Part shown: one piece after another, positions 18,057-32,000 of the stretch | How the letters are laid out: every line of letters begins with the position of its first letter | Numbering within the stretch: position 1 is the first letter of the stretch | Source of the DNA: Candidatus Saccharimonadota bacterium | GTDB lineage: Bacteria > Patescibacteriota > Patescibacteriia > 2-12-FULL-60-25 | DNA: 32,000 nucleotides | Assembly: GCA_016699205.1 (NCBI GenBank) | Contig: CP064964.1 | Location: 930,001-962,000, forward strand | Direction: 5' to 3' | The notes under the pieces: model-generated | Database searches by the model: none | What the model saw: the letters and a program-made list of their open reading frames with translations, nothing else | What the model was told of the DNA's origin: nothing | Position numbers and translations under genes: made by a program

Positions 18057-18088
18057 AAAAACGACCCGATTTATTCCGGGTCGTTTTT
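18057..18088. terminator. Bidirectional rho-independent terminator
   Basis: aaaaacgacccg (18057-68) / cgggtcgttttt (18077-88), flanked by A and T runs. The stop codon of the convergent HTH gene lies in the loop. Confidence 0.75.
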
Positions 18089-18373
18089 ATTTTCCGGTGG
18101 GCGGGGAGAGTATTTCAGATTTTTCATACGCCATTGATCGACCCATTGGCCGATGCCTTGTTCGTCGCGTTTATTCCTTACTTTGGTTTGAGCTTGCGAC
18201 CAAGTGACCAGAGATGGAAAGGAGATTTTATAACGCCCCCGAACAACGATGTATCGAAGCTCTTGGGCAGTGATGGCTCGGCGGATGGTGCGTGGATTTA
18301 CGCCAAAGAGTCTTGCCGCCTCGCTGACGGTGACACGAACGATATTTTCTTTGTTTTGGGACAGCTCAGGCAT
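18071..18373 (-). CDS. Helix-turn-helix DNA-binding protein (excisionase/MerR-like HTH_17 type)
   Basis: VTVSEAARLFGVNPRTIRRAITAQELRYIVVRGRYKI matches the excisionase-family HTH pattern. 100 aa. Divergent from the ECF sigma gene. Confidence 0.7.
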   Translation of the reverse strand: MPELSQNKENIVRVTVSEAARLFGVNPRTIRRAITAQELRYIVVRGRYKISFPSLVTWSQAQTKVRNKRDEQGIGQWVDQWRMKNLKYSPRPPENKNDPE

Positions 18374-18481
18374 GGCTTGAAGTTAGCGCTTTTTTCTATT
18401 TCTGTCTAGTATATTGTGGACTTAACTATATAAAAATGCTTTGTTTTTGCGAATTTTCTAATAAAAATAAGCCTTTTCAGC

Positions 18482-18510
18482 TTGCGAAAAAGCCCTTTTA
18501 GAGCTAATAT
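18482..18510 (+). promoter_or_regulatory. Sigma-70-type promoter TTGCGA-17 nt-TAATAT for the sigma factor gene
   Basis: -35 at 18482-87 and -10 at 18505-10. SD GGAGGGG at 18536-42, 7 nt before ATG 18550. Confidence 0.5.
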
Positions 18511-18549
18511 CCCTAAACTCCTTGCAGTGGTTTTTGGAGGGGAAATCGC

Positions 18550-19113
18550 ATGAGCCAGCTCATCGACCAATACCAACTGTATCGCGTGCGCACACGGCGT
18601 GACGCGGACGCATTTGCTAGCCTATACGACCGGTATATCACATCGATATACCGGTTCGTTTACTTAAAATTACCGTCTCGTGAAGCCGCGGAAGATGTCA
18701 CGTCCGAGACGTTTCTTCGTTTTTGGAATGCGATTCTTCAGAATACGGAAATCCGCAATGTTAGAGCCTTTCTCTACCAGATTGCTCGTAACTTGGTTGT
18801 CGACTTTTATCGCAAAGAAGAGGCTCAAAAGCAGGCGGTTGTAACAACTGATGAGGAATATACGTCTACTGTTAATGAAGGGTTGGTATCGGATCGAGGG
18901 CGTGATCAGAGGCTGATCGAGGCTCGCGTCGATTTACGCATTGTTCTTGAGAGAATCGAGAAATTGAAAGAAGACTATCGCGATGTGTTGACCTTGCGGT
19001 TAATCGACGGACTCGGGTTTGCGGATATCGCACTCGTCCTCGATAAAACGCCGGGACATGTCAGAGTCATCTATCACCGAGCGATTAAAGCGCTCGACAA
19101 ACTTTCCCCCTAA
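18550..19113 (+). CDS. RNA polymerase sigma factor, sigma-70 family, ECF subfamily
   Basis: Region 2 (IYRFVYLKLPSREAAEDVTSETFLRFW) and region 4 HTH (LTLRLIDGLGFADIALVLDKTPGHVRVIYHRAIKAL). 187 aa. Confidence 0.92.
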   Translation: MSQLIDQYQLYRVRTRRDADAFASLYDRYITSIYRFVYLKLPSREAAEDVTSETFLRFWNAILQNTEIRNVRAFLYQIARNLVVDFYRKEEAQKQAVVTTDEEYTSTVNEGLVSDRGRDQRLIEARVDLRIVLERIEKLKEDYRDVLTLRLIDGLGFADIALVLDKTPGHVRVIYHRAIKALDKLSP

Positions 19114-19114
19114 C

Positions 19115-20308
19115 ATGACCAAGCGCGACTTACTCCGTAAATTGCAATCCGTCCGATCGGCGGAGCGCGGCATCGTGCCTGATGCGGAGTTTGTGTTGCG
19201 TACGCGCGAGAATTTATTGATGCAGGTTCGCAACACATTGCCGACGCGCCCTGTGGCGATGCCGGCTCGTGCCAAGCTTGCTCTCAATCATTTGGTTCCG
19301 GAGCGTTTGATGAATTTGGTTCGTGCTCCGGCCTTGGCTACGCTTTCCGTCATCGTCACGGTTTTCGGCGGATCGATTTTTAGCGTGTCGGCTTCGGATC
19401 GTTCTCTGCCTGGTGACTTTTTGTATCCGATCAAGATCGCGACAGAACAAACTCGTTTGGTGTTTACCTCAGGCAAACTTGAAAAGCTTAAGCTTAAGTC
19501 TGAGTTCGTAGATCGTCGTGTGGATGAAATTAAGACATTGGCTACTGCTACCGACCCAGAGCAGCCGGTGCGTTTGAAGCAGGCTGCGGAAGTTTTGAAG
19601 CGGGATTTGAATACGGTAAAAAACCAGCTCTCGGAGGTGAAGTCGGATACGACTCCGGAAACAGCTGATGCTGTTAAGCTTGTTGATAAACAGAGTGAGC
19701 AAATCATTGAGGATTTGAAACTTGTCAGGGATGAAGCACCGGAAGAGGTGAAGAGTAGCTTGGCTGAGGCAGAAGTTGCTGCTGTGCACACAGGTGTTAC
19801 GGCTTTTGAGGTTTTACTTGAGGCGAGCAATGATCCAGATAGCCAGTGGGTGGTGAGCGAGTCGGATATCCTTGATTCGATCAACAAGAAGGTTGATAGC
19901 ATCTCTGCTACTTTGTCCGGTTCTGCTGATAAGTTGCGCTTGGTTAGTGCTTCTAGTACTATCCTACCGATTAATACACAGGCAACTGGGACAGGGGATA
20001 ACCTATTGCTGGGAATGACGAGCACCACTGTCGGACAACTGAATGCCGCTAGCAGCACGTTGCAAGAAGCTCGTGTGCTTTTGAGCGAAAATAAATTAAG
20101 TGAGGTGTCCGGTAAGCTTTTGGAAGCTGCCAAGGCTGTCGCTGAAGCGGAGGTGTCGACGAACAACCTTGTTGCTTCCAGCACGCAAGCGATTCCATCT
20201 CCAGTCACTCCTTCGTCCGAGGGAATGGGAGATGCTTCTACTTCTACGACGCCTGTCACGAGCACCGCGTCTTCTTCTGCATCGTCGACAATGACGAGCC
20301 CACCATAA
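19115..20308 (+). CDS. Single-pass membrane protein with DUF5667-like extracytoplasmic domain, putative anti-sigma factor
   Basis: ATG 19115 lies 1 nt after the sigma stop. TM segment PALATLSVIVTVFGGSIFSV (aa ~72-91). PGDFLYPIKIATEQTRL resembles the DUF5667 motif, followed by a long helical Glu/Lys/Ala region and a Ser/Thr/Pro tail. No zinc anti-sigma motif was seen, so the anti-sigma role rests on position alone. Confidence 0.7.
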   Translation: MTKRDLLRKLQSVRSAERGIVPDAEFVLRTRENLLMQVRNTLPTRPVAMPARAKLALNHLVPERLMNLVRAPALATLSVIVTVFGGSIFSVSASDRSLPGDFLYPIKIATEQTRLVFTSGKLEKLKLKSEFVDRRVDEIKTLATATDPEQPVRLKQAAEVLKRDLNTVKNQLSEVKSDTTPETADAVKLVDKQSEQIIEDLKLVRDEAPEEVKSSLAEAEVAAVHTGVTAFEVLLEASNDPDSQWVVSESDILDSINKKVDSISATLSGSADKLRLVSASSTILPINTQATGTGDNLLLGMTSTTVGQLNAASSTLQEARVLLSENKLSEVSGKLLEAAKAVAEAEVSTNNLVASSTQAIPSPVTPSSEGMGDASTSTTPVTSTASSSASSTMTSPP

Positions 20309-20557
20309 AGGCAGCGAACCCTGTTCTCTCGCGAACAGGGCGACCCTGCCCCAAAAAGGTAGAGCCGTCCTGACGAGCGGGAGAACTCTCGAGCAATCGG
20401 GAATTACCCCTTTCGCTCGCGCTCGAAAAAACAACCACTTTGGCGTCAAGGTCGACACCTCGTTATGCGAGGCTGGCCAGAGTCGCAATTATTAACCACG
20501 CCCCACTAGGATTCGCACGGATCCTCCGGGCCTAGAATCCCGTAAGGGATTCACACT
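20309..20557 (+). promoter_or_regulatory. 249-nt GC-rich structured non-coding spacer upstream of the surface-protein gene (promoter and/or long 5' UTR)
   Basis: No credible ORF. Hairpins at 20319-20340 (8 bp), 20458-20472 (5 bp) and 20535-20552 (7 bp, GUAA tetraloop covering AAGGGA). TAGAAT at 20533-38. Confidence 0.4.
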
Positions 20558-23500
20558 ATGAATTTTCTCAAAAAACTTTTCTCCAGCTTCGTCGCTTTGA
20601 CGACCATCGCATGGTCTGTCGGCGTTGGCAGCCTTGCTCTCCCCAGCATGGCCTCCGCAGCTGTTGCCGGTGAGCTTATTAAGGCTTCTGGTCCTGCTGT
20701 TTACTACTACGCTAGCGATGCTAAGCGCTATGTCTTCCCTAACGAGAAGACATACTTCTCTTGGTACATGAACTTCAATTCCGTACGGACCATTACGGAC
20801 TCGGAGCTCGCCTCGATCATGATTGGTGGCAACGTCACCATTCGTCCGGGCACGAACCTCGTGAAGATCACGACTGATCCGAAGGTCTACGCCGTTGCCC
20901 CTAATGGCGTTCTCCGCTGGATCGAATCCGAAGCGATCGCCATCACGCTTTACGGAGCCTCCTGGGCTTCCCGTGTTGTCGACGTTCCGGATGGCTTCTT
21001 TGTCAACTACTCCGTTGGTTCGTCGATCTCGACGGCCCAGCATCCGGACGGCATGGTCATCACCTACGCTGGTGATTCCAACCGCTATGTCGTTTGGGGT
21101 GGCATGAAGCGCAAGCTTGTTGACCCGGCCTTCGCCGCCAACAACTTCAACCCGATGTACGTCATCACCACCGCGGTTTCATACCCGAATGGTACGGACG
21201 TCACCGGTCGCGAGTCAGCTTTGGCTGATGTCGTCGCCCCTGGTGCAACCACGGTCGGTGGCTCGGTTTCCGCTGCTCTCGCTTCGGACACTCCGGCAGG
21301 ACAGAACGTCCCGCAGGGTGCTTCGAGCATTCAGCTCGCTAAGTACAACTTGACCGCCGGTTCCGCTGGTGTCTTGATCACGGGTCTCTCCCTCCGCCGC
21401 GTTGGCGTTGGTGCTTCCGGTGACTTCGCTAACGTCTACCTCTACAAGGGCGACGGTACGCGCTTGACCACGGGCCGCACGATCAACAGCTCCACCAACT
21501 TGGTGCAGTTCAACGGTTTGAACCTCTCCATCGGAGCTGGTCAGACCTACTCGGTTGTGCTTGTCGGTGACACCAACTCATCTCTTACGGCTGGTGGCCA
21601 GCACTCGTTCGAAATTTCGGACGCTGCTTCCGTCGTCGTGAGCGGTACGGGTTCCTCGGTCTCGGGTTCCTTCCCGATCCGCGGTAACGTCTTCACCATC
21701 GGTACGACCTCGGCTTCCCGCCTTGATGTACAGAAGGGTACGACGCCAACCAACCCACAGATTGGTTCCACAGAAGCTGAAATCTCCAACTTCAAGCTCG
21801 TTGCCCAGGGCAATGACATTGAAGTCCGCCGCGTTACCCTTCTTCAGACGGGTGACATCTCCAACGCTGATCTCACCAACCTCAAGCTCTACCAGGGCTC
21901 GACCCAGGTTGCGATGACCCCGTCTCTTGCGGGTGACAAGATCGTGTTGAACTTCAGCCCGGCTTACCTCGTGACCGACGGTACGACCCGCGTCTTCTCG
22001 CTTAAGGCGAACGTCGCTGGCCGCTCTGGTCGCACGATCAAGACCTACGTCGAGTACTCGACGGACGTCTACGCCATCGACACGGAATTTGGTACGGGTG
22101 CTCGCGTCTGTATTGACTCGACCTCGCCATGTGCCGGTACGTTTGATGGTACGAGCTCGAACTTCATCACTGTGACGACCGAAGGCGGTCAGTTCACGAC
22201 GACCTACAATGGACCGGCTACGTCGGACATTGCCAAGGGTTCGCAGGATGTTCAGCTCTTCAAGTTCGCTGTCACCGCTTCCGACAGCATGCTCGAAGTC
22301 CGCAAGATGTACTTCACTCTTACGGGTCTTACTTCCAACGACAAGGTCAAGGGTAACTTGGCCACGGAGTACTTCCGCGATTTGAAGATCAAGAACCTCG
22401 ACACGGGCGCGACTCTTATGGGTCCGATCTCCTTGCCGACGGGCTTGGCCAACGCCTCGCAGTCCTCTGGTGTCATGACCTTCACCGACTCCTTCAACGT
22501 TAACGCCGGTCAGACTTTGAACCTCGCGTTCACGGCTGACTTGACGAACAGCGCTGACGACGTCTCTGGTGAATTTGCCGATGACGGCAACAACCAGTAT
22601 CGCGCGATCATGGGTTCCGGCGGCACATTGTTTGGTGCTTCCGATATCCGTATCGTCGACACGGGTGAATTCCTCCCGGTCACCGAAATCGTCCCGAACA
22701 CCACCATCAACGGTAACCCGATGACGGTGAAGGCCTCCTCGCTCTCGATCTCTCTCGCTGCTTCTCCGACGGCCGGCACGGCTGTTAAGAAGGAAGCGAT
22801 GATCCCGACGGCTGGCTTTGTGTTCACGGCCGGTTCCCAGAGCCAGATCTTGATTCGCTCGGTCAAGCTCACGGGCCGCGCTGACGTTACCGCCACCGGT
22901 ACGTACGCCCTCGCCGACTTGAACGACGCCATCACCTCCTGTGCTCTCTTCGACGGATCGACCCAGGTCGGTAACGCCGAATCCCCGGATGGCACCACTG
23001 GCGCCATGAACATCACGAACGTGAATGTCACGGTTCCTCAGGGTTCCTCCAAGACGCTCGTTGCCAAGTGTACGGCTGACTCAGTCGTCGCTTCGCAGTG
23101 GGACAAATTTGCCGTCGGTATCGCCGCAGCTGGCGACGTCACGGCTGATGACCAGGACTCCAACACGGTAACCCCGACGTTGAGCGCCTCGGTCAGCGGT
23201 AACGCAGGCGCCACCCCTTCATTGGTCCAGACGGTCATGAACGGCGGTACGCTTACGATTGCTACGGACAACCTTCGCCAGTCGACGATTCTCGTTGCTG
23301 GTGGTGATGTCTGGCAGAACCTTGCTCAGTTCAAGGCCACGGCTCAGTTTGAAGCTATGAAGCTTGAACGTGTTGCTGTCACCTCTACGGGTGATGCCGC
23401 CAACTTCTCGATGATTGCCATCGCTAAGGACGGCGTGGTTGCTGGCTCGGACATTCTTCCGTCGGGCGTCGCTGCGACGCGCGACATTGACCTGACGGCT

Positions 23501-24439
23501 TCGCCGATCATGGTTCCGAAGGATGGCTCGGTCACCTTCCAGCTTTGGGGTAAGATCGGAAATGTGCAGTCTTCCTCGTCGGTCTCCGGCGCCACCACGG
23601 GTGTCGTCCGCTCCGGCAACCAGGTCACGCTCGGCTTGAACGCCGGTCTTGTGACGGGTAACTGGGATGCTTCATACTCCGGTATGTTCAACGTCCGCAC
23701 GGTTGGTCTCGCTTCCGGAGACCTTGTTTACTCGGCCGGTTCGGCTACGGTTGGCAACGCATTTGTCATCCGCAAGTCCAAGCCGACGGTAACCCGCCAG
23801 ACGCTCTCAACCACGACGCTTGCCAACGGTTCCTCGCAGGACCTCTACCGCATGCAAGTCTCGGCTGACAGCGCTGGTTCCGTGGCTGTCAAGAAGATCA
23901 GCTTCGACTTCTCGAAGACTGGCTCCACGACTCTCACGAACTTCCGCGTTCGTAAGGGTTCGACAGACATGAACCTTGCTGACTACGCGATCGTCGATGC
24001 CAACGGCACCGATCTTGAGGCTGGTTCCCTCGTTGCCGGTACCTCCACGGGCCGCATCGTTGTGACCTTCACCAACGAAGAAACCATCACGGGCTCCGGT
24101 AACGTGTACACCTTGTACGCCACCCCGGCTGGCGCGGTTGCCAGCGACACGGTCAGCATTGCCCCGACGCGTAACCTCGCTGGTACGATCTTGACGGGCT
24201 ACATCGATGAAGAAGTGATTGCTGGTACTGGTTTGACCAATGCCACCTTCAACATGCCGGGTGCAAACCTTGACACGGCATCTTCACCGGATGGTACGGC
24301 CGACGCGGCTGGTACCTTCGTGTGGTCCGACCTCTCCGAAGTTCCGCACTCGTTTGCGGCCTCCGGTGCTGGTTCCTACGACTGGACGAACGACGTCTTC
24401 GTAGAAGACCTCACGCAGACCCAGACCTTGACTCGCTAA
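20558..24439 (+). CDS. Secreted S-layer-like surface protein (1,293 aa): signal peptide, N-terminal 3x sub-repeat module, six divergent beta-sandwich-like repeats
   Basis: Signal peptide KKLFSSFVALTTIAWSVGVGSLALPSMASA|A. Thr/Ser/Gly/Ala/Val-rich with only 4 Cys. Repeat period is ~150-185 aa. Strong C-ending codon bias. A 14-bp-stem terminator follows directly downstream. Confidence 0.85.
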   Translation: MNFLKKLFSSFVALTTIAWSVGVGSLALPSMASAAVAGELIKASGPAVYYYASDAKRYVFPNEKTYFSWYMNFNSVRTITDSELASIMIGGNVTIRPGTNLVKITTDPKVYAVAPNGVLRWIESEAIAITLYGASWASRVVDVPDGFFVNYSVGSSISTAQHPDGMVITYAGDSNRYVVWGGMKRKLVDPAFAANNFNPMYVITTAVSYPNGTDVTGRESALADVVAPGATTVGGSVSAALASDTPAGQNVPQGASSIQLAKYNLTAGSAGVLITGLSLRRVGVGASGDFANVYLYKGDGTRLTTGRTINSSTNLVQFNGLNLSIGAGQTYSVVLVGDTNSSLTAGGQHSFEISDAASVVVSGTGSSVSGSFPIRGNVFTIGTTSASRLDVQKGTTPTNPQIGSTEAEISNFKLVAQGNDIEVRRVTLLQTGDISNADLTNLKLYQGSTQVAMTPSLAGDKIVLNFSPAYLVTDGTTRVFSLKANVAGRSGRTIKTYVEYSTDVYAIDTEFGTGARVCIDSTSPCAGTFDGTSSNFITVTTEGGQFTTTYNGPATSDIAKGSQDVQLFKFAVTASDSMLEVRKMYFTLTGLTSNDKVKGNLATEYFRDLKIKNLDTGATLMGPISLPTGLANASQSSGVMTFTDSFNVNAGQTLNLAFTADLTNSADDVSGEFADDGNNQYRAIMGSGGTLFGASDIRIVDTGEFLPVTEIVPNTTINGNPMTVKASSLSISLAASPTAGTAVKKEAMIPTAGFVFTAGSQSQILIRSVKLTGRADVTATGTYALADLNDAITSCALFDGSTQVGNAESPDGTTGAMNITNVNVTVPQGSSKTLVAKCTADSVVASQWDKFAVGIAAAGDVTADDQDSNTVTPTLSASVSGNAGATPSLVQTVMNGGTLTIATDNLRQSTILVAGGDVWQNLAQFKATAQFEAMKLERVAVTSTGDAANFSMIAIAKDGVVAGSDILPSGVAATRDIDLTASPIMVPKDGSVTFQLWGKIGNVQSSSSVSGATTGVVRSGNQVTLGLNAGLVTGNWDASYSGMFNVRTVGLASGDLVYSAGSATVGNAFVIRKSKPTVTRQTLSTTTLANGSSQDLYRMQVSADSAGSVAVKKISFDFSKTGSTTLTNFRVRKGSTDMNLADYAIVDANGTDLEAGSLVAGTSTGRIVVTFTNEETITGSGNVYTLYATPAGAVASDTVSIAPTRNLAGTILTGYIDEEVIAGTGLTNATFNMPGANLDTASSPDGTADAAGTFVWSDLSEVPHSFAASGAGSYDWTNDVFVEDLTQTQTLTR
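20669..21202 (+). other. N-terminal module: three ~55-60-aa sub-repeats, homologous to the C-terminus of the 1928..5107 protein
   Basis: GELIKASGPAVYYYASDAKRYVFPNEKTYFSWY..VRTITDSELASIMIGGNVTIRPG / TNLVKITTDPKVYAVAPNGVLRWIESEAIAITLYGASWASRVVDVPDGFFVNY / DGMVITYAGDSNRYVVWGGMKRKLVDPAFAANNF. Confidence 0.7.
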
Positions 24440-24460
24440 TCGTTAGCGCCGTCATCAGTC

Positions 24461-24492
24461 AAACAAACACCGCCTTCGGGCGGTGTTTGTTT
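24461..24492 (+). terminator. Very strong rho-independent terminator (14-bp stem, UUCG loop)
   Basis: aaacaaacaccgcc (24461-74) ttcg ggcggtgtttgttt (24479-92), followed by tgtgtttg. Confidence 0.85.
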
Positions 24493-24500
24493 TGTGTTTG

Positions 24501-24509
24501 TGCTATGCT
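24501..24509 (+). promoter_or_regulatory. Extended -10 TGcTATGCT, 12 nt upstream of ATG 24522
   Basis: TG at 24501-02 and TATGCT at 24504-09. This is the same hexamer as the 16836 -10 box. Confidence 0.3.
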
Positions 24510-24521
24510 GGGGCGGATTCT

Positions 24522-26849
24522 ATGAACCGATCACAAGCCATCAAGTTCTTCAAAGCTATCTGCTTTTTGGGGATTTACGGGGGATTGCTCCTGCCGCTCG
24601 TCTTTATTCCGGTCGTTATTTTTCCCTTTGTTTTCTCCAAGCTGATTTTCTTTCAGGTGCTTGTCGGTCTGACATTTCCTGCCTATTTGGCATTAGTCTG
24701 GATGGAGCCGAGCTATCGACCGAAGAAGCACGTGCTGTTTTTTGCTATCCTGGCCTACTTTGTTGCAATCGGGTTATCGGTGGTTTTTGCTGTAGATCCG
24801 TATCGTGCTTGGTGGGGAAATCAGGAGCGCATGAACGGTTTGTTTACGTTGCTGCACTTTTTGGCTTGGTTAACGATGACTGTCGGTATCGTTAAAACAT
24901 GGGAACAGTGGAAAACGCTGCTTCATTATCAGGTTGGGCTTTCTGCGATCATGGCTATTGTCGCTATTTTGCAGAAAATGAATCCTAATCTTCTGTTGTT
25001 TCCGGCTGGTCCGCGTGTCGGAGGACTGCTTGATAATCCGATCTACATGGCGGCATATCAGATCTTTAACTTTTTCTTTTTGGCGCTGTTGTTTTGGAAA
25101 AATCCAAATAGAAATTGGCGCGTTGCTTATGGCCTTATTCTGGTCGTGGATATCATCGCGTTTATTCTTGCCCAGTCGCGCGGAGCGTTGATGGGATTGG
25201 CAGCTGGTATTGTGGCATTTGCTTTTTATACGGCGTTGTTTACAACGAATAAAAAGCTTCGTTATGGCGTGTTTGGATTGTTGCTCGCCATGTTTGCAGG
25301 ATATGGAGCGCTTTATCTTGCAAAGGATACTACGGTGGTACGAGAGTCGCCTCTGCATCGTTATGTCGATTTTCAAGGCGCGGTACGTACGCGTTTAATT
25401 GCGTGGGATATCGCTTGGCAGGGATTTGTCGAGCGTCCGCTTACTGGTTGGGGATTTGATAATTTTCACGTTCTTTTCAATCTTAAGTACAATCCGATTT
25501 CGTTGCGTTTCGGATCTTACGAAACTTGGTTTGATCGCGCGCATAACACAGTGATGGACGTGCTTTCAATGACTGGTATCTTTGGCTTTGTCACGTTCTT
25601 TGGAATCTACGGCGCTATTTTTTACAGTACTTGGCGCGCTTTCCGTAAAAAGTGGATTGATCTGCCGATTGCCGCGATTTTGTTTTCACTTCCTGTTGCT
25701 TACTTTGTCCAGAACTTGTTCGTGTTTGATCATCCGGCAGGATTCTCGATGAGTTATTTGTTGTTTGCGCTGATCATCGCCGCAACGAAAGGCGGGTTTA
25801 TCGGGGAGAAAGAGGCGATGGCTGAGAAGCATAAGGAAACGGGGATCATGCAAGCGCCATGGACGGCATTTGTCGTATTAATGGTCGTCATGGGTCTCCT
25901 TGTTCTTAGAACGTCTGTGAATCCATTTCAGGTTTCAAGAAAGGCATTGCAAGCGAATGCGATTTTTAGTGCTAATCCACAGATGTCGTATCAGATTGCA
26001 TTGGAGGCATCTAAAACATGGACGCCTTACTTGGATGAGCAATCATTTTTGCTTTCGCGTAATATGATCTCTTTGCTTGGATCTGGTGCAGCGGCGCGAA
26101 CGCCGAATTGGAAAGAGATGTATGAATTAGCCAAGACCCTCTCACTTGAAGAGATCGCGCGTCATCCTCGCAATACGCATCCGCGATTTATCTTTGCGCG
26201 TCTCGCTCAGGAGGTTATGGGACTCATTCCTGCAGAAGCTCCTGTCTCTGAAAGGATGTATCAAGAGGCGATTGCAACCAGTCCAAAGCGCCAGCAACTG
26301 CATTATGGTTTGGCTCGTTTGTATCTTATGACTGGCAATCTTGAGCCTGCGCTGAACGTGTTCCGAAATGTCATTAGCTTTGATACGGAATTTGGAGAAG
26401 GTTATTGGAATCTGGGTATTACTCTCATGTATGACAAGCGCGAGCTTGAGGCGGGTGCGGAGAATGTACAAAAGGCTTTGTCGGCACTTTATCCTTATCG
26501 CTTACAGAGTCCGCGCGAGCTGGTTGTTGTCGCTGACTCGCTCATGATTCGACAAGACGACGAAGGGATGAAAACTTTTATATCAAAACTTGGTACGGAT
26601 TATCCGCTAGGAACCGCCGATGTGTATGCTCAGCTTGTTTATAAGCTGCAGGTTGTAAAGAAGGATGAGTTGGCTCAAGCGATGCTCGCTGCGACGAGCG
26701 CCTTGGATCCAGCTACGCCTAAAGCGCTTCAGGCGCTGATCAATCAGGCGAATGGTCAAACAACCCCGACTCCTGCTCCAGCCCCGACTTCCGCGGCAAC
26801 CGGAACCGCTCCGATTGCAACGGCTACGTATAACGGATTGCGACGTTAA
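24522..26849 (+). CDS. O-antigen ligase/Wzy_C-family polytopic membrane protein fused to a C-terminal TPR-like domain and Pro/Thr-rich tail
   Basis: ATG 24522; the track start at 24483 lies inside the terminator. About 12 hydrophobic helices. ILAQSRGALMGLAAGIVAF and RLIAWDIAWQGFVERPLTGWGFDNF are typical of Wzy_C/O-antigen ligase proteins. The C-terminal part has TPR-like helical repeats (YGLARLYLMTGNLEPALNVFRNVISFD.EFGEGYWNLGITL) and the tail TTPTPAPAPTSAATGTAP. Confidence 0.85.
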   Translation: MNRSQAIKFFKAICFLGIYGGLLLPLVFIPVVIFPFVFSKLIFFQVLVGLTFPAYLALVWMEPSYRPKKHVLFFAILAYFVAIGLSVVFAVDPYRAWWGNQERMNGLFTLLHFLAWLTMTVGIVKTWEQWKTLLHYQVGLSAIMAIVAILQKMNPNLLLFPAGPRVGGLLDNPIYMAAYQIFNFFFLALLFWKNPNRNWRVAYGLILVVDIIAFILAQSRGALMGLAAGIVAFAFYTALFTTNKKLRYGVFGLLLAMFAGYGALYLAKDTTVVRESPLHRYVDFQGAVRTRLIAWDIAWQGFVERPLTGWGFDNFHVLFNLKYNPISLRFGSYETWFDRAHNTVMDVLSMTGIFGFVTFFGIYGAIFYSTWRAFRKKWIDLPIAAILFSLPVAYFVQNLFVFDHPAGFSMSYLLFALIIAATKGGFIGEKEAMAEKHKETGIMQAPWTAFVVLMVVMGLLVLRTSVNPFQVSRKALQANAIFSANPQMSYQIALEASKTWTPYLDEQSFLLSRNMISLLGSGAAARTPNWKEMYELAKTLSLEEIARHPRNTHPRFIFARLAQEVMGLIPAEAPVSERMYQEAIATSPKRQQLHYGLARLYLMTGNLEPALNVFRNVISFDTEFGEGYWNLGITLMYDKRELEAGAENVQKALSALYPYRLQSPRELVVVADSLMIRQDDEGMKTFISKLGTDYPLGTADVYAQLVYKLQVVKKDELAQAMLAATSALDPATPKALQALINQANGQTTPTPAPAPTSAATGTAPIATATYNGLRR

Positions 26850-27982
26850 TCGAGGAGAGCTGAAGCGTTGCCTGACAGCGTTTTCTCAAGCGGGAAGCGG
26901 TTTTGTACCGCTTCCTTTGCGTTTTGGCCGAGTTGAATGCGTTTTGATTCGTTGTTGGCTAACTCGAGAATGGCTCGGGTGAGCGCTTGTGTATCGGAAG
27001 GTGGAACGATGATTCCGTCGGCATCGCCGAGCATCCATTTTGCGGCGCCGACATCGGTGGCGACGCAGGGGAGCGAGGCCGCCATCGCTTCAAGAAGAGC
27101 AAAGGCCATGCCTTCTTTGGTTGAGGGAAGTGTAAAGACGTCGAAGGCACGGAGCAGAGACGATGCGTTGTTTAGTTCACCTGCAAGCGTGATTGATTCC
27201 GTAAGATTGAGATCGGTGATTTTTTGCTCGATGCGTTTGCGTTCCGGACCATCGCCAATCAAGACAAAGTGAGGAGAAGGATTTTGGTCGATGACATTAC
27301 GGATCGTGTCGATGTAGGCCGGAATATTTTTTGGAGCGTAAAAGTTAGATACACTGCCGATGACAATACTATCTTGTTTCAAGCCGAGTTTGGCCCGTGC
27401 TTCATTTTTGGAGAGCAGGTTGGATTCAAATCGAACAAAATCAATTCCATTAGGAATCGTGATGACTTTGCTTTTTGGTTTGATGGAATGTTTTGCGGCC
27501 TCGATTTCATCGGAAGGATTTACGCAGATGATCGTGTCCTTGAAGTGGGCGGTGAAACGTTCTGCGTAGATATAGATTTGGCGTTTCCAGCTCGGCAAGT
27601 TTTCCAGGAAAACCCAGCCGCCGATGCGATAGACGACCCGATCGACTTTTGCGATGTTACTCGCGATGGATCCGAGTACGCCCATTTTTGTGCTATTCAA
27701 ATGCACAACCTCAAAATGATGTTGGCGGAAAAGTTGATTGAGCTCGCGAATCGCAAGAATATCTTGAATCGGATGAATGTCGCGGCGCATGTGGTTGAGC
27801 CGTATGAAGCGGATTCCATGGGATTTTGCTTGTTCTGCAAGCCAGTTGCCTGTGCCTGCGAGGATCGTCACATCATGACCCATTTCTTTAAGGTATTGGG
27901 CGAATTCAAGCAAAAAAACCTGGACACCTCCGATCTCAGCGAGGGTCACGGCCAAGGCGATGCGTTTTTTTGCCTCATTCAT
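26846..27982 (-). CDS. Glycosyltransferase family 4
   Basis: KRIALAVTLAEIGGVQVF N-terminal strand plus EX7E region KEGMAFALLEAMAASLPCVATDVGAAKW. I prefer ATG 27982 (MNEAKKRIALAV) because TATCGT lies 6 nt upstream; the alternative start is 28021. The stop overlaps the convergent gene (TTAA). Confidence 0.85.
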   Translation of the reverse strand: MNEAKKRIALAVTLAEIGGVQVFLLEFAQYLKEMGHDVTILAGTGNWLAEQAKSHGIRFIRLNHMRRDIHPIQDILAIRELNQLFRQHHFEVVHLNSTKMGVLGSIASNIAKVDRVVYRIGGWVFLENLPSWKRQIYIYAERFTAHFKDTIICVNPSDEIEAAKHSIKPKSKVITIPNGIDFVRFESNLLSKNEARAKLGLKQDSIVIGSVSNFYAPKNIPAYIDTIRNVIDQNPSPHFVLIGDGPERKRIEQKITDLNLTESITLAGELNNASSLLRAFDVFTLPSTKEGMAFALLEAMAASLPCVATDVGAAKWMLGDADGIIVPPSDTQALTRAILELANNESKRIQLGQNAKEAVQNRFPLEKTLSGNASALLD

Positions 27983-27988
27983 GGCATT

Positions 27989-27994
27989 ACGATA
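27989..27994 (-). promoter_or_regulatory. -10 box TATCGT, 6 nt upstream of ATG 27982
   Basis: Minus strand reads cc TATCGT aatgcc ATG. Confidence 0.3.
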
Positions 27995-28035
27995 GGCTGG
28001 AGTCTGGTAAATCGTCAACATTTTTTGGCTAAGCT

Positions 28036-29811
28036 ATGTGTGGAATTGCCGGATTAATCGCTAAGAATGGACGGTCCTTGGATCAGGGCCGCTTGGTTGC
28101 GATGGCCGGTAAAATCGCACATCGAGGTCCGGATGGTGATGGGATGTGGGTTGAGGGTCAGGCTGGGCTCGCGCATCGCCGTTTGGCATTGGTCGATCTG
28201 TCACCGAGCGGAGCGCAGCCGATGATCTCTGACGACGGAAGATATGTCATCACGTTTAACGGAGAAATATATAATTATAAAGAGTTACGTGAAGAGTATT
28301 TGGCAAAAGGTGGAATGCTTCGTTCAACGAGCGATACGGAAATTTTACTGACCTTGTTTGCGCAGGAAGGCGAGGCGATGCTTGCCAAGCTGCGCGGGAT
28401 GTTTGCGTTTGCGATTTGGGATAAGCAGGAATCGTGTCTCTTTTTTGCGAGAGATCGTATCGGAAAGAAGCCGTTTTTTTATCGACACAATGAAGATGAA
28501 TTTGCATTTGCATCGGAAGTTAAATCGTTGATCGATGCTGAGGCGCGGATTGATGAGCAGGCGGTCCGATTGTTTTTGGGTTTGCAGTATGTTCCAAGTC
28601 CATTAACTGGCTTCAAGAATATTTTTTCTCTTGAGCCTGGAATGTGCGGTACCTGGAAAGATGGTGTTCTTGCGACGCGTTCTTATATTGAGCCAGTTAC
28701 CAGGTCGGACGTTTCTTTTGATGATGCTGTGCATGAGGTGCGGCGCATTCTGGATGAGAGCGTGCGTTTGCGTTTGATCGCCGATGTTCCGGTTGGTATT
28801 TTTCTTTCCGGCGGAATTGACTCTTCGTCGATTGCAGCGCTTGCGCATAAACAGGGCGTGAAACTTTCCTCTTTTACACTTGGTTTTGATGAGGCGGCTT
28901 TTGATGAGCGTGATCAGGCAGCGGAACTCGCCAAGGAATTTGGATTTGAACATCATTCTTTTTTGGCAAAGCCGGAAGACTTGCTAGCGATCGCTGATGA
29001 AGTGATCGAGCATTATGATGTGCCGTATGCCGATTCTTCATCGCTGAATACGTGGATTTTGGCTAGGGAAACCAAGAAGCATGTGAAAGCTGCTCTTACT
29101 GGAGACGGTGGTGATGAGCTGTTTGGCGGGTATCGACGTTATCGATATTTTGAACAGGCGTTAGGATTTAAACAGATGGGGGTTGGACCGATCGCTGGCC
29201 AGATGTCACGAGTAGTGGGACAGGTAATGGGAGATCCAAAGTTCCAGCGTTTTGCTGACACGATCGATGGAGGATATGCGTCACTATTTTGCGGGGCTTA
29301 TTTTCAGCAGCCGGAAGCGCTCGCGTTTATCGATAGTCACTTGAAAAAAGATTTGGATCCGATTGGCGCGGCAATGGATTTTGATTTGCATTCATATCTG
29401 TCCGATGATTTGAATGTGAAGATGGACCGCGCGTCCATGCGCCATGGACTTGAAGCTCGATGTCCTTTACTTGATCAAGAGCTTGTTTCTTATGTGACGA
29501 GTTTGCCGACCGAGTATCGATACAAGAAGGGCCAGACAAAGCGGCTACTTGTCGAGGCTGTGAAAGATTTATTGCCTATCGAGATCGGTAAGCGAGCAAA
29601 GCGCGGTTTTCAGGTACCGCTAGCTATATGGTTCCGTGGTGCTTTGCGAAACGCTTTTGTAGAGCGTTGCGTGAATTCGACGAAGCTTCATACTTATGTC
29701 GCGAAAGAACGTGTCGAGAAGCTTTTGAGCGAGAATGACCGCGGAAGCGATCATGGAAATCGTTTGTGGATGCTTTACTCGCTTGCGACCTGGTTAGAAA
29801 AATATGGATAA
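28036..29811 (+). CDS. Asparagine synthase (glutamine-hydrolysing) family amidotransferase
   Basis: N-terminal nucleophile MCGIAG, PP-loop SGGIDSS and LTGDGGDELFGGY. 591 aa. Its position in a glycan cluster suggests sugar or peptide amidation rather than Asn biosynthesis (inference). Confidence 0.92.
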   Translation: MCGIAGLIAKNGRSLDQGRLVAMAGKIAHRGPDGDGMWVEGQAGLAHRRLALVDLSPSGAQPMISDDGRYVITFNGEIYNYKELREEYLAKGGMLRSTSDTEILLTLFAQEGEAMLAKLRGMFAFAIWDKQESCLFFARDRIGKKPFFYRHNEDEFAFASEVKSLIDAEARIDEQAVRLFLGLQYVPSPLTGFKNIFSLEPGMCGTWKDGVLATRSYIEPVTRSDVSFDDAVHEVRRILDESVRLRLIADVPVGIFLSGGIDSSSIAALAHKQGVKLSSFTLGFDEAAFDERDQAAELAKEFGFEHHSFLAKPEDLLAIADEVIEHYDVPYADSSSLNTWILARETKKHVKAALTGDGGDELFGGYRRYRYFEQALGFKQMGVGPIAGQMSRVVGQVMGDPKFQRFADTIDGGYASLFCGAYFQQPEALAFIDSHLKKDLDPIGAAMDFDLHSYLSDDLNVKMDRASMRHGLEARCPLLDQELVSYVTSLPTEYRYKKGQTKRLLVEAVKDLLPIEIGKRAKRGFQVPLAIWFRGALRNAFVERCVNSTKLHTYVAKERVEKLLSENDRGSDHGNRLWMLYSLATWLEKYG

Positions 29812-30934
29812 ACGTATTTTGATTTTTTCCACAGCGTTTTATCCGGTTGTCGGAGGAGCGGAAGTGGCTTTGAAAGAATTGACGGATCGCATGCCCGGTT
29901 CGATTTATTTTGATTTGGTGTGTGCGCGCTTGAAAAAAGGATTGCCGGATACAGAGCGGATGGGAAATGTTGAAGTGCATCGTGTTGGATTTGGATATTC
30001 TTTTGATAAATATCTGCTGCCTTTCATCGGTGTTGCGCGAGCGATGAAGCTTGTGCCAAAAGGCACGCCGGTTTGGTCGATGATGGCGAGTTATGCCGGA
30101 TTTGCGAGTTTGTTTTATTGCTGGATGCGCCCATCGACGAAGTTATTGCTTACGCTTCAGGAGGGCGATCCGTTGGAGAAGTATGCCAAGCGCTTGGGTC
30201 CTTTGGGTTTTTTACAGGGCTTTTTATTCCGTCGAGCTGATCGCGTACAAGCCATTAGCCGATTTCTTGGGGAATGGGCCGTGAAGAATGGTTTTCGTGG
30301 ATCTGTCGATGTTATTCCAAACGGTGTTGATATTGAGAGTTTTTCCAAATCTATCGATGCATCGCGCCGCAAACATCTCCGTGAGATGTTTGGTTTTGGC
30401 GATGACGATATTGTTTTGGTGACGGCATCGCGCTTGTCTTTAAAGAATGCGGTAGATGATGTTGTGCGTGCTATGCCTGTGCTACCGGCTCGATGTAAGT
30501 TTCTTGTTATCGGTGTTGGGGAAGATGACGGGATGTTGCATTCGCTTGTGGATGAGCTGGGTGTAAAAGATCGTGTTGTTTTTGCCGGCTATCGTACGCA
30601 TGCAGAATTGCCAGAGCTGCTGCGCGCTTCAGAAATTTTTATCCGACCTTCTTTATCTGAGGGATTGGGTAATTCATTTTTGGAGGCGATGGCAGCGGAG
30701 ATTCCGATTATCGGTACGCAAGTTGGCGGGATTCCTGACTTTTTGATCGATGGAGAGACGGGTGTGTTTTGTGAGCCGAGAAATCCGGAATCGATTGTGA
30801 AAGCGGTCGATCGCTTACTCGTAGAACCGGGGCTAAGAGAGCGTGTTGTTACCAATGGTGCAAAGCTTGTGCGCGAGGGTTATGATTGGGCATCGATCAG
30901 CGTAAGAATGCAGAAGCTTTTGGAGACTCTATGA
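29804..30934 (+). CDS. Glycosyltransferase family 4
   Basis: RILIFSTAFYPVVGGAEV N-terminus and SEGLGNSFLEAMAAEIPIIGTQVGGIPDF EX7E region. The start overlaps the asnB-like stop (ATGGATAA). Confidence 0.9.
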   Translation: MDKRILIFSTAFYPVVGGAEVALKELTDRMPGSIYFDLVCARLKKGLPDTERMGNVEVHRVGFGYSFDKYLLPFIGVARAMKLVPKGTPVWSMMASYAGFASLFYCWMRPSTKLLLTLQEGDPLEKYAKRLGPLGFLQGFLFRRADRVQAISRFLGEWAVKNGFRGSVDVIPNGVDIESFSKSIDASRRKHLREMFGFGDDDIVLVTASRLSLKNAVDDVVRAMPVLPARCKFLVIGVGEDDGMLHSLVDELGVKDRVVFAGYRTHAELPELLRASEIFIRPSLSEGLGNSFLEAMAAEIPIIGTQVGGIPDFLIDGETGVFCEPRNPESIVKAVDRLLVEPGLRERVVTNGAKLVREGYDWASISVRMQKLLETL

Positions 30935-31636
30935 CGATTTATACTTCCGGGAATGCTGCAAAACAGTGGATTTTAACCGAACTGCATACGCGATTTGGTG
31001 AAGCGGCTTTTAAGATTTTGGATCTCGGCTGCGGTGCAGCTGGATCATGGAAGACTTTTTTAGAGATGCATCCGCAAGCGGCGTATTTTGGATTTGATTA
31101 TGACCGAGCCGCTGTGGAAAAGGGGCGGCGTGATTTTTCTGGAATAACGAATGCTGTTTTGAAGGTGGGGGATGCGCAGACATTGTCAACGGGTGAGGCG
31201 TTTGATGTTGTGACCGCGTTTAGTGCTATCGAACATGTGGTTGATAAAGAAGCGTTTTTAAAAACGGTTTTTTCTGCATTAAAATCCGGTGGTGTGGCGT
31301 ATTTGAATTATGACGATGGGGCATTTCCGATCGACGGATATCAAGGAGCGCATCATGGTTCCGGTGAGCCAGTTATTGGCGATGATTGGTATTCAGGGTC
31401 CGTATATGAAGCATGTTGTTGATACGGAATTTTCTAAGCAGGCGGAGCAAGCGGGATTTAAGGTCATCGCTCTTCGCAAGCACAATCTCTATCCTATTAA
31501 AGGGTTTATGCGTGGAGCGTCTGAGGAGGCTGTTAAAGCCTGGTATGAATTTGAAGAGAGATTGAACGAGCTCTATACGCCTGAGCAGTTGGATAAGGTT
31601 AAATGGTCTACGACACTGGTTATAGAAAAGCCATGA
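30931..31636 (+). pseudogene. Class I SAM-dependent methyltransferase interrupted by a +1 frameshift at the G4 run 31318-31321
   Basis: Motif I ILDLGCGAAGSW and LKSGGVAYLNYDDG appear in frame 1. The natural continuation HFRSTDIKERIMVPVSQLLAMIGIQGPYMKHV...FKVIALRKHN is in frame 2 (ORF 31310..31636). Removing one G restores a 234-aa ORF. The start overlaps the GT4 stop (ATGA). Confidence 0.65.
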
Positions 31637-32000
31637 GAATTTTAATTGCCTCGGGTATTTACCCGCCAGAAGGAGGAGGGCCTTCCATTTATAGCCATGC
31701 GATGGCCCGTGCTTTGATTTCCATGGGCCACAGCGTTTCTGTTGTTGCTTACGGAGAAGAAGCGAGCTCAACGTCCGATGGTTGGCGCGTTGAGCGTGTT
31801 TCTCGTCGTGGCGGACCGATGGTCCGTTACTTCCGTTTCTTTGTTCGTGCATGGAAAGCGATGAAGTCTGCGGATGTTGTTTACTTGCAGGGCGCGGTAT
31901 CGGAAGGATTGCCGACGACGATTGCGGCGGGATTGCGTCGTATCCCGACGGTGTATCGCATTCCCGGAGATTACGCCTGGGAGATGTCGCAGCAGCGCGG
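31633..32000 (+). CDS. Glycosyltransferase family 4, N-terminal part (runs off the window)
   Basis: Not in the ORF track because no stop is reached. My translation is MRILIASGIYPPEGGGPSIYSHAMARALISMGHSVSVVAYGEE..., with no stop through 32000. ATG 31633 overlaps the preceding stop (ATGA). Confidence 0.75.
   Translation, partial: MRILIASGIYPPEGGGPSIYSHAMARALISMGHSVSVVAYGEEASSTSDGWRVERVSRRGGPMVRYFRFFVRAWKAMKSADVVYLQGAVSEGLPTTIAAGLRRIPTVYRIPGDYAWEMSQQR

Follow-up and report, generated by a model that had tools for sequence, protein, structure and literature searches.

Which genes build and decorate the outer coat of the bacteria of the candidate phyla radiation (CPR, or Patescibacteria) is the question raised by a stretch of 32,000 nucleotides of contig CP064964.1 (assembly GCA_016699205.1, positions 930,001 to 962,000), here called the window, in which a gene for a secreted protein of 1,293 amino acids lies between a sigma factor operon and a set of glycan genes. 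The protein (encoded at 20558-24439) is referred to as BIG. These organisms make up a large share of bacterial diversity, are mostly uncultured, live attached to other cells and have an envelope that is barely understood. We know of no protein that has been tied experimentally to a CPR S-layer and of no protein glycosylation system in the group. In cryogenic transmission electron microscopy of CPR cells, an S-layer was present and an outer membrane was absent. A preliminary description of the window, made from the sequence alone, had called the organism Patescibacteria-like and had taken the genes from position 18071 onward as a self-contained S-layer glycoprotein module. The organism call was borne out, since it is a member of Candidatus Uhrbacteria, and database records list the homologs of BIG as hypothetical proteins from Candidatus Uhrbacteria or from the Patescibacteria group. 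The best explanation of the locus as a whole, held with a little less than even confidence, is a conserved envelope module of Uhrbacteria and Parcubacteria in which BIG, an S-layer-type protein, is combined with WsfB-like glycan transfer, a sigma/membrane-sensor pair and a structured RNA.

A first line of evidence is the conservation of the locus across relatives. When one genome per GTDB species was scanned, at least 587 genomes were found to encode a relative of BIG. The best 120 homologs were nearly all full length (1,150-1,370 amino acids) with 52-99% identity, and in the 80 best-matching of the at least 587 genomes the length was 1,290-1,330 amino acids and the identity at least 46%. A search without a profile that started from the N-terminal domain and went on to BLASTP gave full-length homologs of 1,117-1,340 amino acids at identities down to 28%, and some of these distant homologs came from metagenome-assembled genomes (MAGs) of the Parcubacteria group. 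Many of the records that carry the locus (L004, L005, L009 and others) are titled 'uncultured Gammaproteobacteria bacterium' (TPA_asm MAGs), which looks like a placeholder and not a taxonomy.

Gene order was determined by tblastn of the window proteins against 80 fetched loci, and each count is given over the loci with enough flanking sequence. The sigma gene was found upstream of BIG in 71 of 73 loci, immediately 5' of the DUF5667 gene, which was itself upstream of BIG in at least 68 of 73 loci, the remainder being low-coverage matches. The gene for the Wzy_C enzyme with a tetratricopeptide repeat tail (Wzy_C-TPR) was located within 4 kb downstream of BIG in 61 of 63 loci, and the remaining two had it within 7 kb. 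A convergent family 4 glycosyltransferase (GT4) gene on the minus strand followed in 51 of 52 loci, and an AsnB-type gene in 36 of 52. Upstream, a helix-turn-helix (HTH) gene on the minus strand or a GT4 gene was present in 62 of 66 loci; the HTH_17 gene was found in 37 of the 66 and an ortholog of the upstream GT4 at the equivalent position in 32. The outer flanks varied by lineage, with the large multi-GT4 gene on the downstream side in some lineages and on the upstream side in others. The core order was retained in four distant contexts, in which BIG is 28-34% identical. These read sigma, methyltransferase, 562-amino-acid protein, DUF5667, BIG, TPR protein, Wzy_C, PMT-family GT-C and Wzy_C-TPR in P0376 (BIG 29%); HTH, sigma, membrane protein, BIG, Wzy_C-TPR, 189-amino-acid protein, GT4 on the minus strand, GT4 and GT4 in L084 (34%); HTH, sigma, DUF5667, BIG and the contig end in L085 (28%); and sigma, DUF5667, BIG, TPR-only protein, UDP-glucose dehydrogenase, GT4 on the minus strand, epimerase and GT4 in L086 (30%). 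The HTH gene is thus kept in L084 and L085 as well. The order sigma/DUF5667/large repeat protein/Wzy_C-TPR, which the preliminary description had proposed as a test, was strongly upheld in about 80 genomes and in the four distant contexts. Because this order is kept across relatives, the genes form a functionally linked unit, and we regard the locus as such a module with high confidence.

BIG carries the signs of a protein that is exported and made in quantity. Its single hydrophobic segment is located at residues 10-28, with no other membrane-spanning anchor, and a signal peptide can be read directly from the sequence, with a KK n-region and an ASA/A site. The composition (isoelectric point 4.7, rich in T, A, G, S and V, four Cys) fits the S-layer stereotype. 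The BIG gene had been described as the most codon-biased of the window, and this was confirmed by a G+C content at third codon positions (GC3) of 0.708 and an effective number of codons (Nc) of 34.2, compared to 0.38-0.60 and 40-55, respectively, for the other complete genes. Among 78 lineages, the Nc of BIG was below that of its neighbours in 77 (mean difference -10), GC3 was raised in 77 independently of the background GC, and BIG was the most codon-biased gene at the locus in 74. The claim that BIG is followed by the strongest terminator also stood, the 14-bp stem at 24461-24492 being the longest terminator-like stem in the whole window, and a comparable hairpin and T tract occurred within 150 nt past the BIG stop codon in 61 of 76 loci. 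Monocistronic transcription is described for Gram-positive S-layer genes (PMC2943079), and passages of a study of cultured Paceibacteria in enrichments place proteins with peptidoglycan-binding domains or Ig-like folds among the most expressed secreted genes (PMC10936435).

The N-terminal module of BIG consists of three small beta/alpha repeats and is the most conserved part of the protein in the conservation profile. The AlphaFold2 (AF2) model of residues 30-235 reached a pLDDT of 89.9 and a pTM of 0.84; the AF2 models of BIG were built on 68-69 homologs. In the PDB, the fold of the module matched only the envelope repeats of the type VII secretion protein EccB (best E 9e-4, TM-score 0.24), and these repeats weakly resemble the wall-binding phage protein PlyCB (PMC4769845). 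Viral structures gave two matches at E <= 0.001, both uncharacterised (a Rhodococcus phage and an algal virus), and CHAP, amidase and lysozyme were not significant. In sequence searches the module returned 4,678 representative matches, 1,503 of them below 1e-30, at the N- or C-terminus of proteins of 186-1,753 amino acids, and nine sampled partners carried Big_1, Big_5, Invasin_D3, DUF3048 or DUF7107 domains. This distribution over many secreted proteins is the one expected of a general surface-anchoring module, which would hold BIG at the wall. The secreted beta-helix protein at 1928-5107 of the window (1,059 amino acids, isoelectric point 4.5) ends in two copies of the module and shows no codon bias (Nc 51.7); it may be a second, low-expression client of the putative anchor. 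Codon bias, signal peptide, Ig-like body and shared N-terminal module together support the earlier impression of BIG as abundant, secreted, wall-tethered and structural, and we consider it probable that BIG is an abundant surface protein.

Downstream of BIG, the predicted Wzy_C-family enzyme with a TPR tail was likewise recovered. In the family scans, for which the window proteins were searched against Pfam and NCBIfam, the Wzy_C domain scored 58.9 bits compared to the Pfam (PF04932) cutoff of 31.7, and the tail matched TPR_19 in Pfam and OGT-like TPR structures in the PDB. The only solved relative of the membrane part was WaaL (7tpg), with E 6e-5 for the single sequence and 1e-10 with a profile. 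Crude hydropathy analysis gave a WaaL-like core, an extra helix at residues 448-466 and then the 309-residue TPR tail, which is predicted to lie outside the cell because of that extra transmembrane helix. Residues 268-343 form the large loop, which ends in HNTVMDVLSMTGIFG (at residue 341), fitting H[NSQ]x9Gxx[GTY]. This pattern is the signature of ligases and O-oligosaccharyltransferases (O-OTases) at the end of the large external loop, and the polymerase pattern is RX10G. Residues H341, N342, G352, G355, R220, R280, R291, H316, D338 and R339 were invariant in 36 Wzy_C-TPR homologs. WsaB and WsfB are predicted S-layer O-OTases that carry Wzy_C, both WsfB and PglL have a C-terminal TPR region, and WsaA is a separate TPR protein beside WsaB (PMC2943079). 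In the distant loci the TPR protein was found either separate beside Wzy_C, as in WsaA/WsaB (P0376), or as a TPR-only protein (L086, 11548-12459), and P0376 contains, in addition, a gene for a PMT/PMT_2 GT-C enzyme along with a second Wzy_C-TPR gene. CPR cells are reported to be without an outer membrane, which makes a lipid A-core acceptor unlikely, and no lipopolysaccharide genes were found in the window. That BIG is glycosylated by the Wzy_C-TPR enzyme is a tentative reading, held with rather more doubt than belief. The C-terminal extracytoplasmic tails of the DUF5667 protein (20180-20305) and of Wzy_C-TPR (26755-26846) are Ser/Thr/Pro/Ala low-complexity segments. General O-OTases often glycosylate segments of this kind, and the two proteins could themselves be O-OTase substrates.

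The glycosyltransferases that the preliminary description had mapped were all present, and the cluster also reaches upstream of 18071, where a further GT4 gene was found. The locus of P. alvei for S-layer glycosylation (slg) includes the asparagine synthase homologue wsfA, and WsaE joins glycosyltransferase and methyltransferase domains (PMC2943079). In L083, positions 1-2449 encode a protein of at least 961 amino acids in which a methyltransferase is fused to GT4 domains, functions that are carried by separate overlapping genes in the window; the fusion recalls the chain-terminating WsaE. The generalisation that slg clusters usually adjoin the structural gene applies to Geobacillus and fails for P. 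alvei and Aneurinibacillus (PMC2943079).

The main rival to glycosylation of BIG is that BIG binds the glycan rather than carries it. The glycan would then be a wall- or membrane-linked polysaccharide, similar to a secondary cell wall polymer or teichuronic acid, Wzy_C-TPR would be a polymerase or a ligase to a non-protein acceptor, and BIG, unglycosylated, would dock on the polymer through its N-terminal module as SLH domains do on pyruvylated wall polymers. The GT4 and AsnB proteins did score best, below cutoff, against the NCBIfam models PEP-CTERM stp2, eps_aminotran_1, TuaC and EpsE, which are exopolysaccharide and teichuronic-acid families; UDP-glucose dehydrogenase and epimerases occur in related loci; polymerases belong to the Wzy_C family; and a polymer receptor shared by them would fit the presence of the module on a wide range of secreted proteins. 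An anchor-ligand relationship also explains the conserved adjacency equally well. Against this, the invariant H-N-x9-G-x2-G is, as these signatures are generally defined, that of ligases and O-OTases and not the RX10G of polymerases, and WsfB and PglL, which target proteins, are described as having TPR tails. Both the large multi-GT4 proteins and the methyltransferase-glycosyltransferase fusions resemble processive cytoplasmic synthesis with a methyl cap, as with WsaE, which needs no Wzy polymerase, and there is no LCP-type wall ligase in the locus. We regard the wall-polymer reading as somewhat unlikely.

Between the DUF5667 and BIG genes, the 249-nt spacer had been described as structured, and it was found to fold at -98.6 kcal/mol, with z = -5.2 compared to shuffled sequences. 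Alignments of the spacer from 14 and then 72 genomes contained blocks that were better conserved than the flanking proteins, and RNAalifold returned helices with compensatory changes. In the Rfam 15 covariance search, no match in the window reached the gathering score, and the spacers of the window and of L025 gave nothing below E ~0.7. R1, a covariance model built for domain I, matched 57 sources (56 loci and the window) of the 81 searched, 1.63 Mb in total, with one match per locus, on the plus strand and always directly upstream of BIG. Standard pairs accounted for 87.8% of the cells in domain I compared to 42-48% when the partners were slid, and helix P1 showed true swaps, one example pair being GC in 24, CG in 17 and AU in 11 sequences. 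The G-rich strand CGAGCGGGAGAAC pairs downstream with CUUUCGCUCG to form P2. Its alternative upstream partner, GUUCUCCCGC, forming P0, was paired in 77.9% of the cells compared to 54-71% when slid, a weaker support than that for P1. Such alternative pairing allows a switch and does not prove one. Up to three conserved C-rich partners of the G-rich strand (20374-20386) were seen, at 20323-20332, at 20410-20419 and, in most relatives, as AUCCUCGCC before domain II; several partners of one strand suggest mutually exclusive folds, and two of the pairings were counted.

In domain II, the motif AA[AG]GUCG was found in 77 of the 79 loci examined, usually as AAAGGUCGA and in the window as CAAGGUCGA. 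It lies on the 5' side of an internal loop; an outer stem of variable sequence closes this loop, and a hairpin, also variable, comes after it. This architecture was present in 74 of 77 loci, and under strict criteria in 42 of 77 compared to 1.8% of shuffles, with 33 distinct stem sequences; the domain was tested by anchor-based folding, MAFFT having misaligned the covarying stems. Domain II was also present in L084 and L085, where BIG is 28-34% identical and the spacers are unusually stable (z = -4.8 and -6.4, respectively). The sole Shine-Dalgarno (SD)-like sequence of the apparently highly expressed BIG gene, AAGGG, was found buried in a conserved hairpin (20535-20557). A hammerhead ribozyme, suggested by CUGACGAG in the spacer, was rejected, as GAAA is absent after stem II in the relatives and there is no Rfam match. 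The combination of AAAGGTCGA and TTATTCA as a promoter was rejected because the spacing ranges from 28 to 60 nt and the stems in between covary. No shared promoter was found upstream of domain I, where the best bipartite word pair occurred in 20 of 56 loci.

The spacer could be a 5' leader or an intercistronic processing or stabilising element; the second option would resemble operons in which the message of a structural subunit is cut free and outlives that of its regulator. Alternatively, the spacer may not be a regulatory RNA, and may consist of the 3' end or terminator of the sigma operon followed by a BIG promoter, or of a passive stabilising 5' stem-loop. Long structured leaders that prolong mRNA half-life are a known feature of S-layer genes, which agrees with the passive form, and transcription could start within the spacer, where a TA-rich element after domain II (UUAUUCA or UACUCA) could be a -10 box. 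However, passive stabilisers need no invariant unpaired nucleotides, and the AA[AG]GUCG motif lies within a loop whose flanking stems covary. The conserved alternative partners of the G-rich strand, the persistence of domain II at 28-34% BIG identity and hairpins without U tracts after them also argue against a non-regulatory spacer, which we consider unlikely. The most far-reaching reading is that the spacer belongs to a so far undescribed class of cis-regulatory RNA and acts as a riboswitch or as an autoregulatory leader that binds a protein, with an invariant AAAGGUCGA loop and a G-rich strand with alternative partners, which gates the major envelope protein across Parcubacteria, and that the locus is the first dedicated CPR S-layer O-glycosylation system with its own extracytoplasmic function (ECF) sigma factor and a novel anti-sigma sensor. 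Taken as a whole, this is a speculative proposal and is probably more than the locus will bear out.

The sigma factor contains regions 2 and 4 only and scored 78 bits against the NCBIfam model TIGR02937 (cutoff 42.9), indicating the ECF type. The DUF5667 gene begins 1 nt past the sigma stop codon and is translationally coupled to it. Its product has one hydrophobic segment (residues ~70-91) and a conserved cytoplasmic N-terminal region of ~40 residues. The translational coupling, the single transmembrane helix and the conserved cytoplasmic N-terminus suggest that the DUF5667 protein is an anti-sigma factor; judged from position only, the sigma factor would drive BIG. The homolog search with the DUF5667 protein returned same-clade orthologs only, and no mention of DUF5667 was found in the literature searched. 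The best NCBIfam match of the sigma factor was the BldN ECF family, at 112 bits far below the cutoff of 206, and the divergent HTH protein (18071-18373) was weakly BldC-like (E 0.007), far below the family cutoff. Both likenesses recall the Streptomyces regulators of surface-sheath proteins.

The AF2 model of residues 94-1293 of BIG (pLDDT 89.1) is an all-beta string of immunoglobulin (Ig)-like sandwiches, for which Foldseek returned generic Ig-domain chains only (PrgB, axonemal proteins, alpha-2-macroglobulin, integrins and titin) with TM-scores of 0.1-0.2. Because the matches are generic Ig-domain strings, the fold cannot separate an S-layer protein from an adhesin. The lone match of a BIG sequence profile to the PDB was dismissed as chance. 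BIG might therefore be a wall-anchored fibre or adhesin for contact with a host or surface, and not a lattice, with the rest of the locus modifying or regulating it. The top fold matches are indeed Ig-domain adhesins and fibres (PrgB, antigen I/II, invasin-type domains and mastigonemes), CPR bacteria are episymbionts, and Kuroda et al., in passages of their study, take similar highly expressed proteins as host-attachment factors (PMC10936435). Adhesins, however, usually diversify and vary in length or copy number, and BIG is steady at 1,290-1,330 amino acids and at least 46% identity in its 80 best-matching genomes, its lone variable patch being short (residues 1201-1250); abundance in bulk, as a structural protein, is suggested by the extreme codon bias, which holds in 77 of 78 lineages. 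An adhesin is for these reasons improbable. Excerpts of a 2024 preprint (bioRxiv 10.1101/2024.05.28.596244) predict Patescibacteria S-layer proteins of 1,131-1,274 amino acids that form hexagonal (p6) lattices; A0A1G2EN61, A0A1F5NRV7, A0A0G1WWP5, A0A1F4NSF7 and GMX59286.1 are accessions of such predicted proteins. Periodicities of 3.8 and 10 nm are reported by He et al. Formation of an S-layer lattice by BIG is evenly balanced on the present evidence, and its S-layer role and glycosylation are plausible but unproven. A chance meeting of unrelated housekeeping envelope genes in one genome, for which murC, murB and secA upstream in a region generally rich in envelope genes might speak, is scarcely credible, being contradicted by the recurrence of order and strands, between changing outer flanks, in about 80 genomes and in four distant lineages.

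In the model that we favour, the conserved envelope module, BIG would be exported by Sec, tethered to the wall through its N-terminal triple-repeat module and produced at a very high level, its mRNA being essentially monocistronic, with a long structured leader and a terminator of its own. Most likely it would constitute the proteinaceous surface layer that has been observed on CPR cells. A lipid-linked glycan would be built by the flanking GT4 enzymes together with an AsnB-type amidotransferase and a methyltransferase, and the Wzy_C-TPR enzyme, of the WaaL/PglL/WsfB type, would transfer it on the external side of the membrane, most likely onto BIG, with the extracytoplasmic TPR domain holding the protein acceptor. 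The ECF sigma factor and the co-translated DUF5667 protein would act as a sensor pair for the state of the envelope, and the structured RNA may add post-transcriptional control or mRNA stabilisation.

Several observations weigh against this model. Pfam, NCBIfam and a PDB sequence search gave no match of BIG to known S-layer families or anchors (SLH, CWB2 and others); its fold matches include adhesins and show no specific likeness to a known S-layer protein, and S-layer proteins do not usually reach the 46-99% identity that BIG keeps along its whole length in many species. The case for wall binding by the N-terminal module depends on the weak EccB fold matches cited above. The Wzy_C family also includes polymerases and lipid-acceptor ligases, and L086 has the TPR protein and no Wzy_C nearby. 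No anti-sigma domain (zf-HC2, RskA or alike) was found in the DUF5667 protein in Pfam and NCBIfam scans, no ECF-type promoter was found before BIG in the sequence upstream of RNA domain I, and the element that recurs upstream of the sigma gene in many relatives, cTTGnnn-N17-TAnnnT, is of the housekeeping type. Pfam annotations gave no initiating phosphoglycosyltransferase, flippase or ABC exporter in the window or within 8-10 kb in eight annotated loci. With the initiating enzyme and the flippase or exporter not nearby, the self-contained character given to the module in the preliminary description is not supported. Finally, the methyltransferase gene is frameshifted in the window.

The positions of the features are collected in Table 1. 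Every open reading frame of the preliminary description was found where it had been placed, as judged from the open reading frame list and translations, and the start and stop codons overlap along the asnB-like/GT4/methyltransferase/GT4 string as it had given them. An exact look-up of BIG and of P0121, a Wzy_C protein of 100% identity, gave no record. Two genes were corrected with reference to L001, a 99% relative used for gene starts and for the methyltransferase frame. The Wzy_C gene is present, and its start is most likely ATG 24522 and not GTG 24483, because the latter falls within the terminator hairpin; ATG 24522 yields a 775-amino-acid product, as called in L001 and other relatives. The methyltransferase gene is present but not intact, because a single additional G at 31318 divides it between two reading frames; here the window reads GGGG and L001, whose 234-amino-acid gene is intact, reads GGG. 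The extra G could be an assembly error, a pseudogene mutation or a slippage-prone tract.

Table 1. Features of the locus; positions count from the first nucleotide of the window.
Feature	Position	Strand	Remarks
Further copy of the BIG N-terminal repeat module	4646..5017	+	C-terminus of secreted beta-helix protein 1928-5107; tblastn 38% identity, E 6e-24
GT4 glycosyltransferase	16875..18050	+	Pfam Glyco_transf_4 and Glycos_transf_1; upstream of core
HTH_17 small DNA-binding protein (excisionase-type)	18071..18373	-	Pfam HTH_17 E 2e-7; divergent from sigma gene
Promoter candidate, sigma-70-like, of sigma/DUF5667 operon	18482..18510	+	TTGCGA-N17-TAATAT, consensus match only
ECF-type sigma factor	18550..19113	+	Pfam Sigma70_r2 and Sigma70_r4_2
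DUF5667 single-pass membrane protein, candidate anti-sigma factor	19115..20308	+	Pfam DUF5667 E 3e-12
Structured RNA spacer, 249 nt	20309..20557	+	Between DUF5667 gene and BIG gene
RNA domain I	20322..20425	+	Covariance model R1
RNA domain I, helix P1	20336-20349 with 20359-20372	+	
RNA domain I, G-rich strand	20374-20386	+	P2 with 20410-20419, or alternatively P0 with 20323-20332
RNA domain I, hairpin P2a	20387-20402	+	
RNA domain II	20437..20496	+	Outer stem 20437-20444 with 20476-20483; internal loop CAAGGUCGA 20447-20455; inner hairpin 20458-20472; then AAUUAUUAAC 20487-20496
Hairpin P5 (GAAUCCCGUAAGGGAUUC)	20535..20552	+	Consensus fold with compensatory changes; GNRA-type loop; holds SD-like AAGGG 5 nt before AUG
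BIG, 1,293 aa	20558..24439	+	Pfam: no family above threshold
BIG parts (residues)			Signal peptide 1-~35; triple-repeat module ~36-232; tandem Ig-like beta-sandwiches to ~1200; variable patch 1201-1250; conserved C-terminal 43 residues
Intrinsic-terminator-like hairpin	24461..24492	+	3' of BIG; 14-bp stem, then T-rich tail
Wzy_C-TPR polytopic enzyme (WaaL/PglL/WsfB-type)	24522..26849	+	Pfam Wzy_C and TPR_19
Convergent GT4 glycosyltransferase	26846..28021	-	Pfam
AsnB-type glutamine amidotransferase	28036..29811	+	Pfam Asn_synthase E 2e-90, and GATase
GT4 glycosyltransferase	29804..30934	+	Pfam
S-adenosylmethionine (SAM) methyltransferase, frameshifted at 31318	30931..31636	+	Pfam Methyltransf_31 and others
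Large multi-GT4 protein, start only	31633..32000	+	Pfam; 1,221 aa in L001

The locus provides a clade-wide candidate for the structural protein, an adjacent candidate glycan transferase, a candidate regulatory pair and an undescribed structured RNA, and with them a model, open to testing, of the assembly and decoration of the outer coat in these very small bacteria. In addition, the surface proteome of these organisms could be recognised by the shared terminal repeat module.

Compared with known systems, every S-layer glycome trait cited above from PMC2943079 has a counterpart here, including the fusion in L083 and the split TPR and Wzy_C proteins in the distant loci. The closest likeness in layout is the slg cluster of Geobacillus stearothermophilus NRS 2004/3a with sgsE, where a structural gene with its own transcript adjoins the glycan cluster and where a Wzy_C O-OTase (WsaB) with a TPR partner (WsaA), split as in the distant relatives here, is accompanied by multi-domain glycosyltransferases and a methyltransferase (WsaE). 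In contrast, no rml genes, WsaP-type initiating enzyme or Wzm/Wzt exporter were seen within 10 kb here, BIG is unrelated in sequence to SgsE, and the structural gene is preceded by an ECF sigma/DUF5667 pair and a conserved structured RNA. In Paenibacillus alvei (wsfA, wsfB; S-layer protein SpaA), Wzy_C is likewise fused to a C-terminal TPR region and an AsnB-type gene belongs to the slg locus, but spaA lies far from it, whereas the structural gene is adjacent here; the chemistry of P. alvei, tyrosine O-glycosylation, cannot be assumed for this locus. The enzyme shares with the PglL/PilO O-OTases and WaaL (7tpg, E 1e-10) the Pfam Wzy_C domain and a large extracytoplasmic loop ending in a His motif, and differs in its length of ~775 amino acids, its extra transmembrane helix and its 300-residue TPR tail; no lipid A-core acceptor is expected.

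SbsB combines SLH repeats with Ig-like domains. BIG resembles S-layer proteins of this anchor and Ig-like type in its signal peptide, terminal triple-repeat module of anchoring type, string of beta-sandwiches, acidic and Cys-poor composition and strong codon bias, but differs in that the scans detected neither SLH nor CWB2 nor another known anchor family, its module has EccB as its only fold relative, and its conservation across species is far higher. In Streptomyces, sigma-BldN and its anti-sigma factor RsbN control the chaplin and rodlin proteins of the surface sheath. As in that system, an ECF sigma gene is followed here by a gene for a single-pass membrane protein without a recognisable anti-sigma domain and adjoins surface-layer genes, but with the score far below cutoff and no ECF promoter found before BIG, the likeness is one of analogy only. 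By description, BIG is also similar to the S-layer proteins predicted in the 2024 preprint, which come from the same phylum, are 1,131-1,274 amino acids long compared to 1,293, and were screened for Ig-like domains and an anchor among other criteria; Uhrbacteria are not listed in the parts of the preprint concerned. The keyword-searched passages of the preprint and of PMC10936435 contain no reference to a sigma/DUF5667/Wzy_C-TPR gene neighbourhood or to an RNA leader. S-layer glycoprotein loci of Gram-positive bacteria are the known kind to which this locus comes closest, and its RNA element and its sigma/DUF5667 association are unprecedented.

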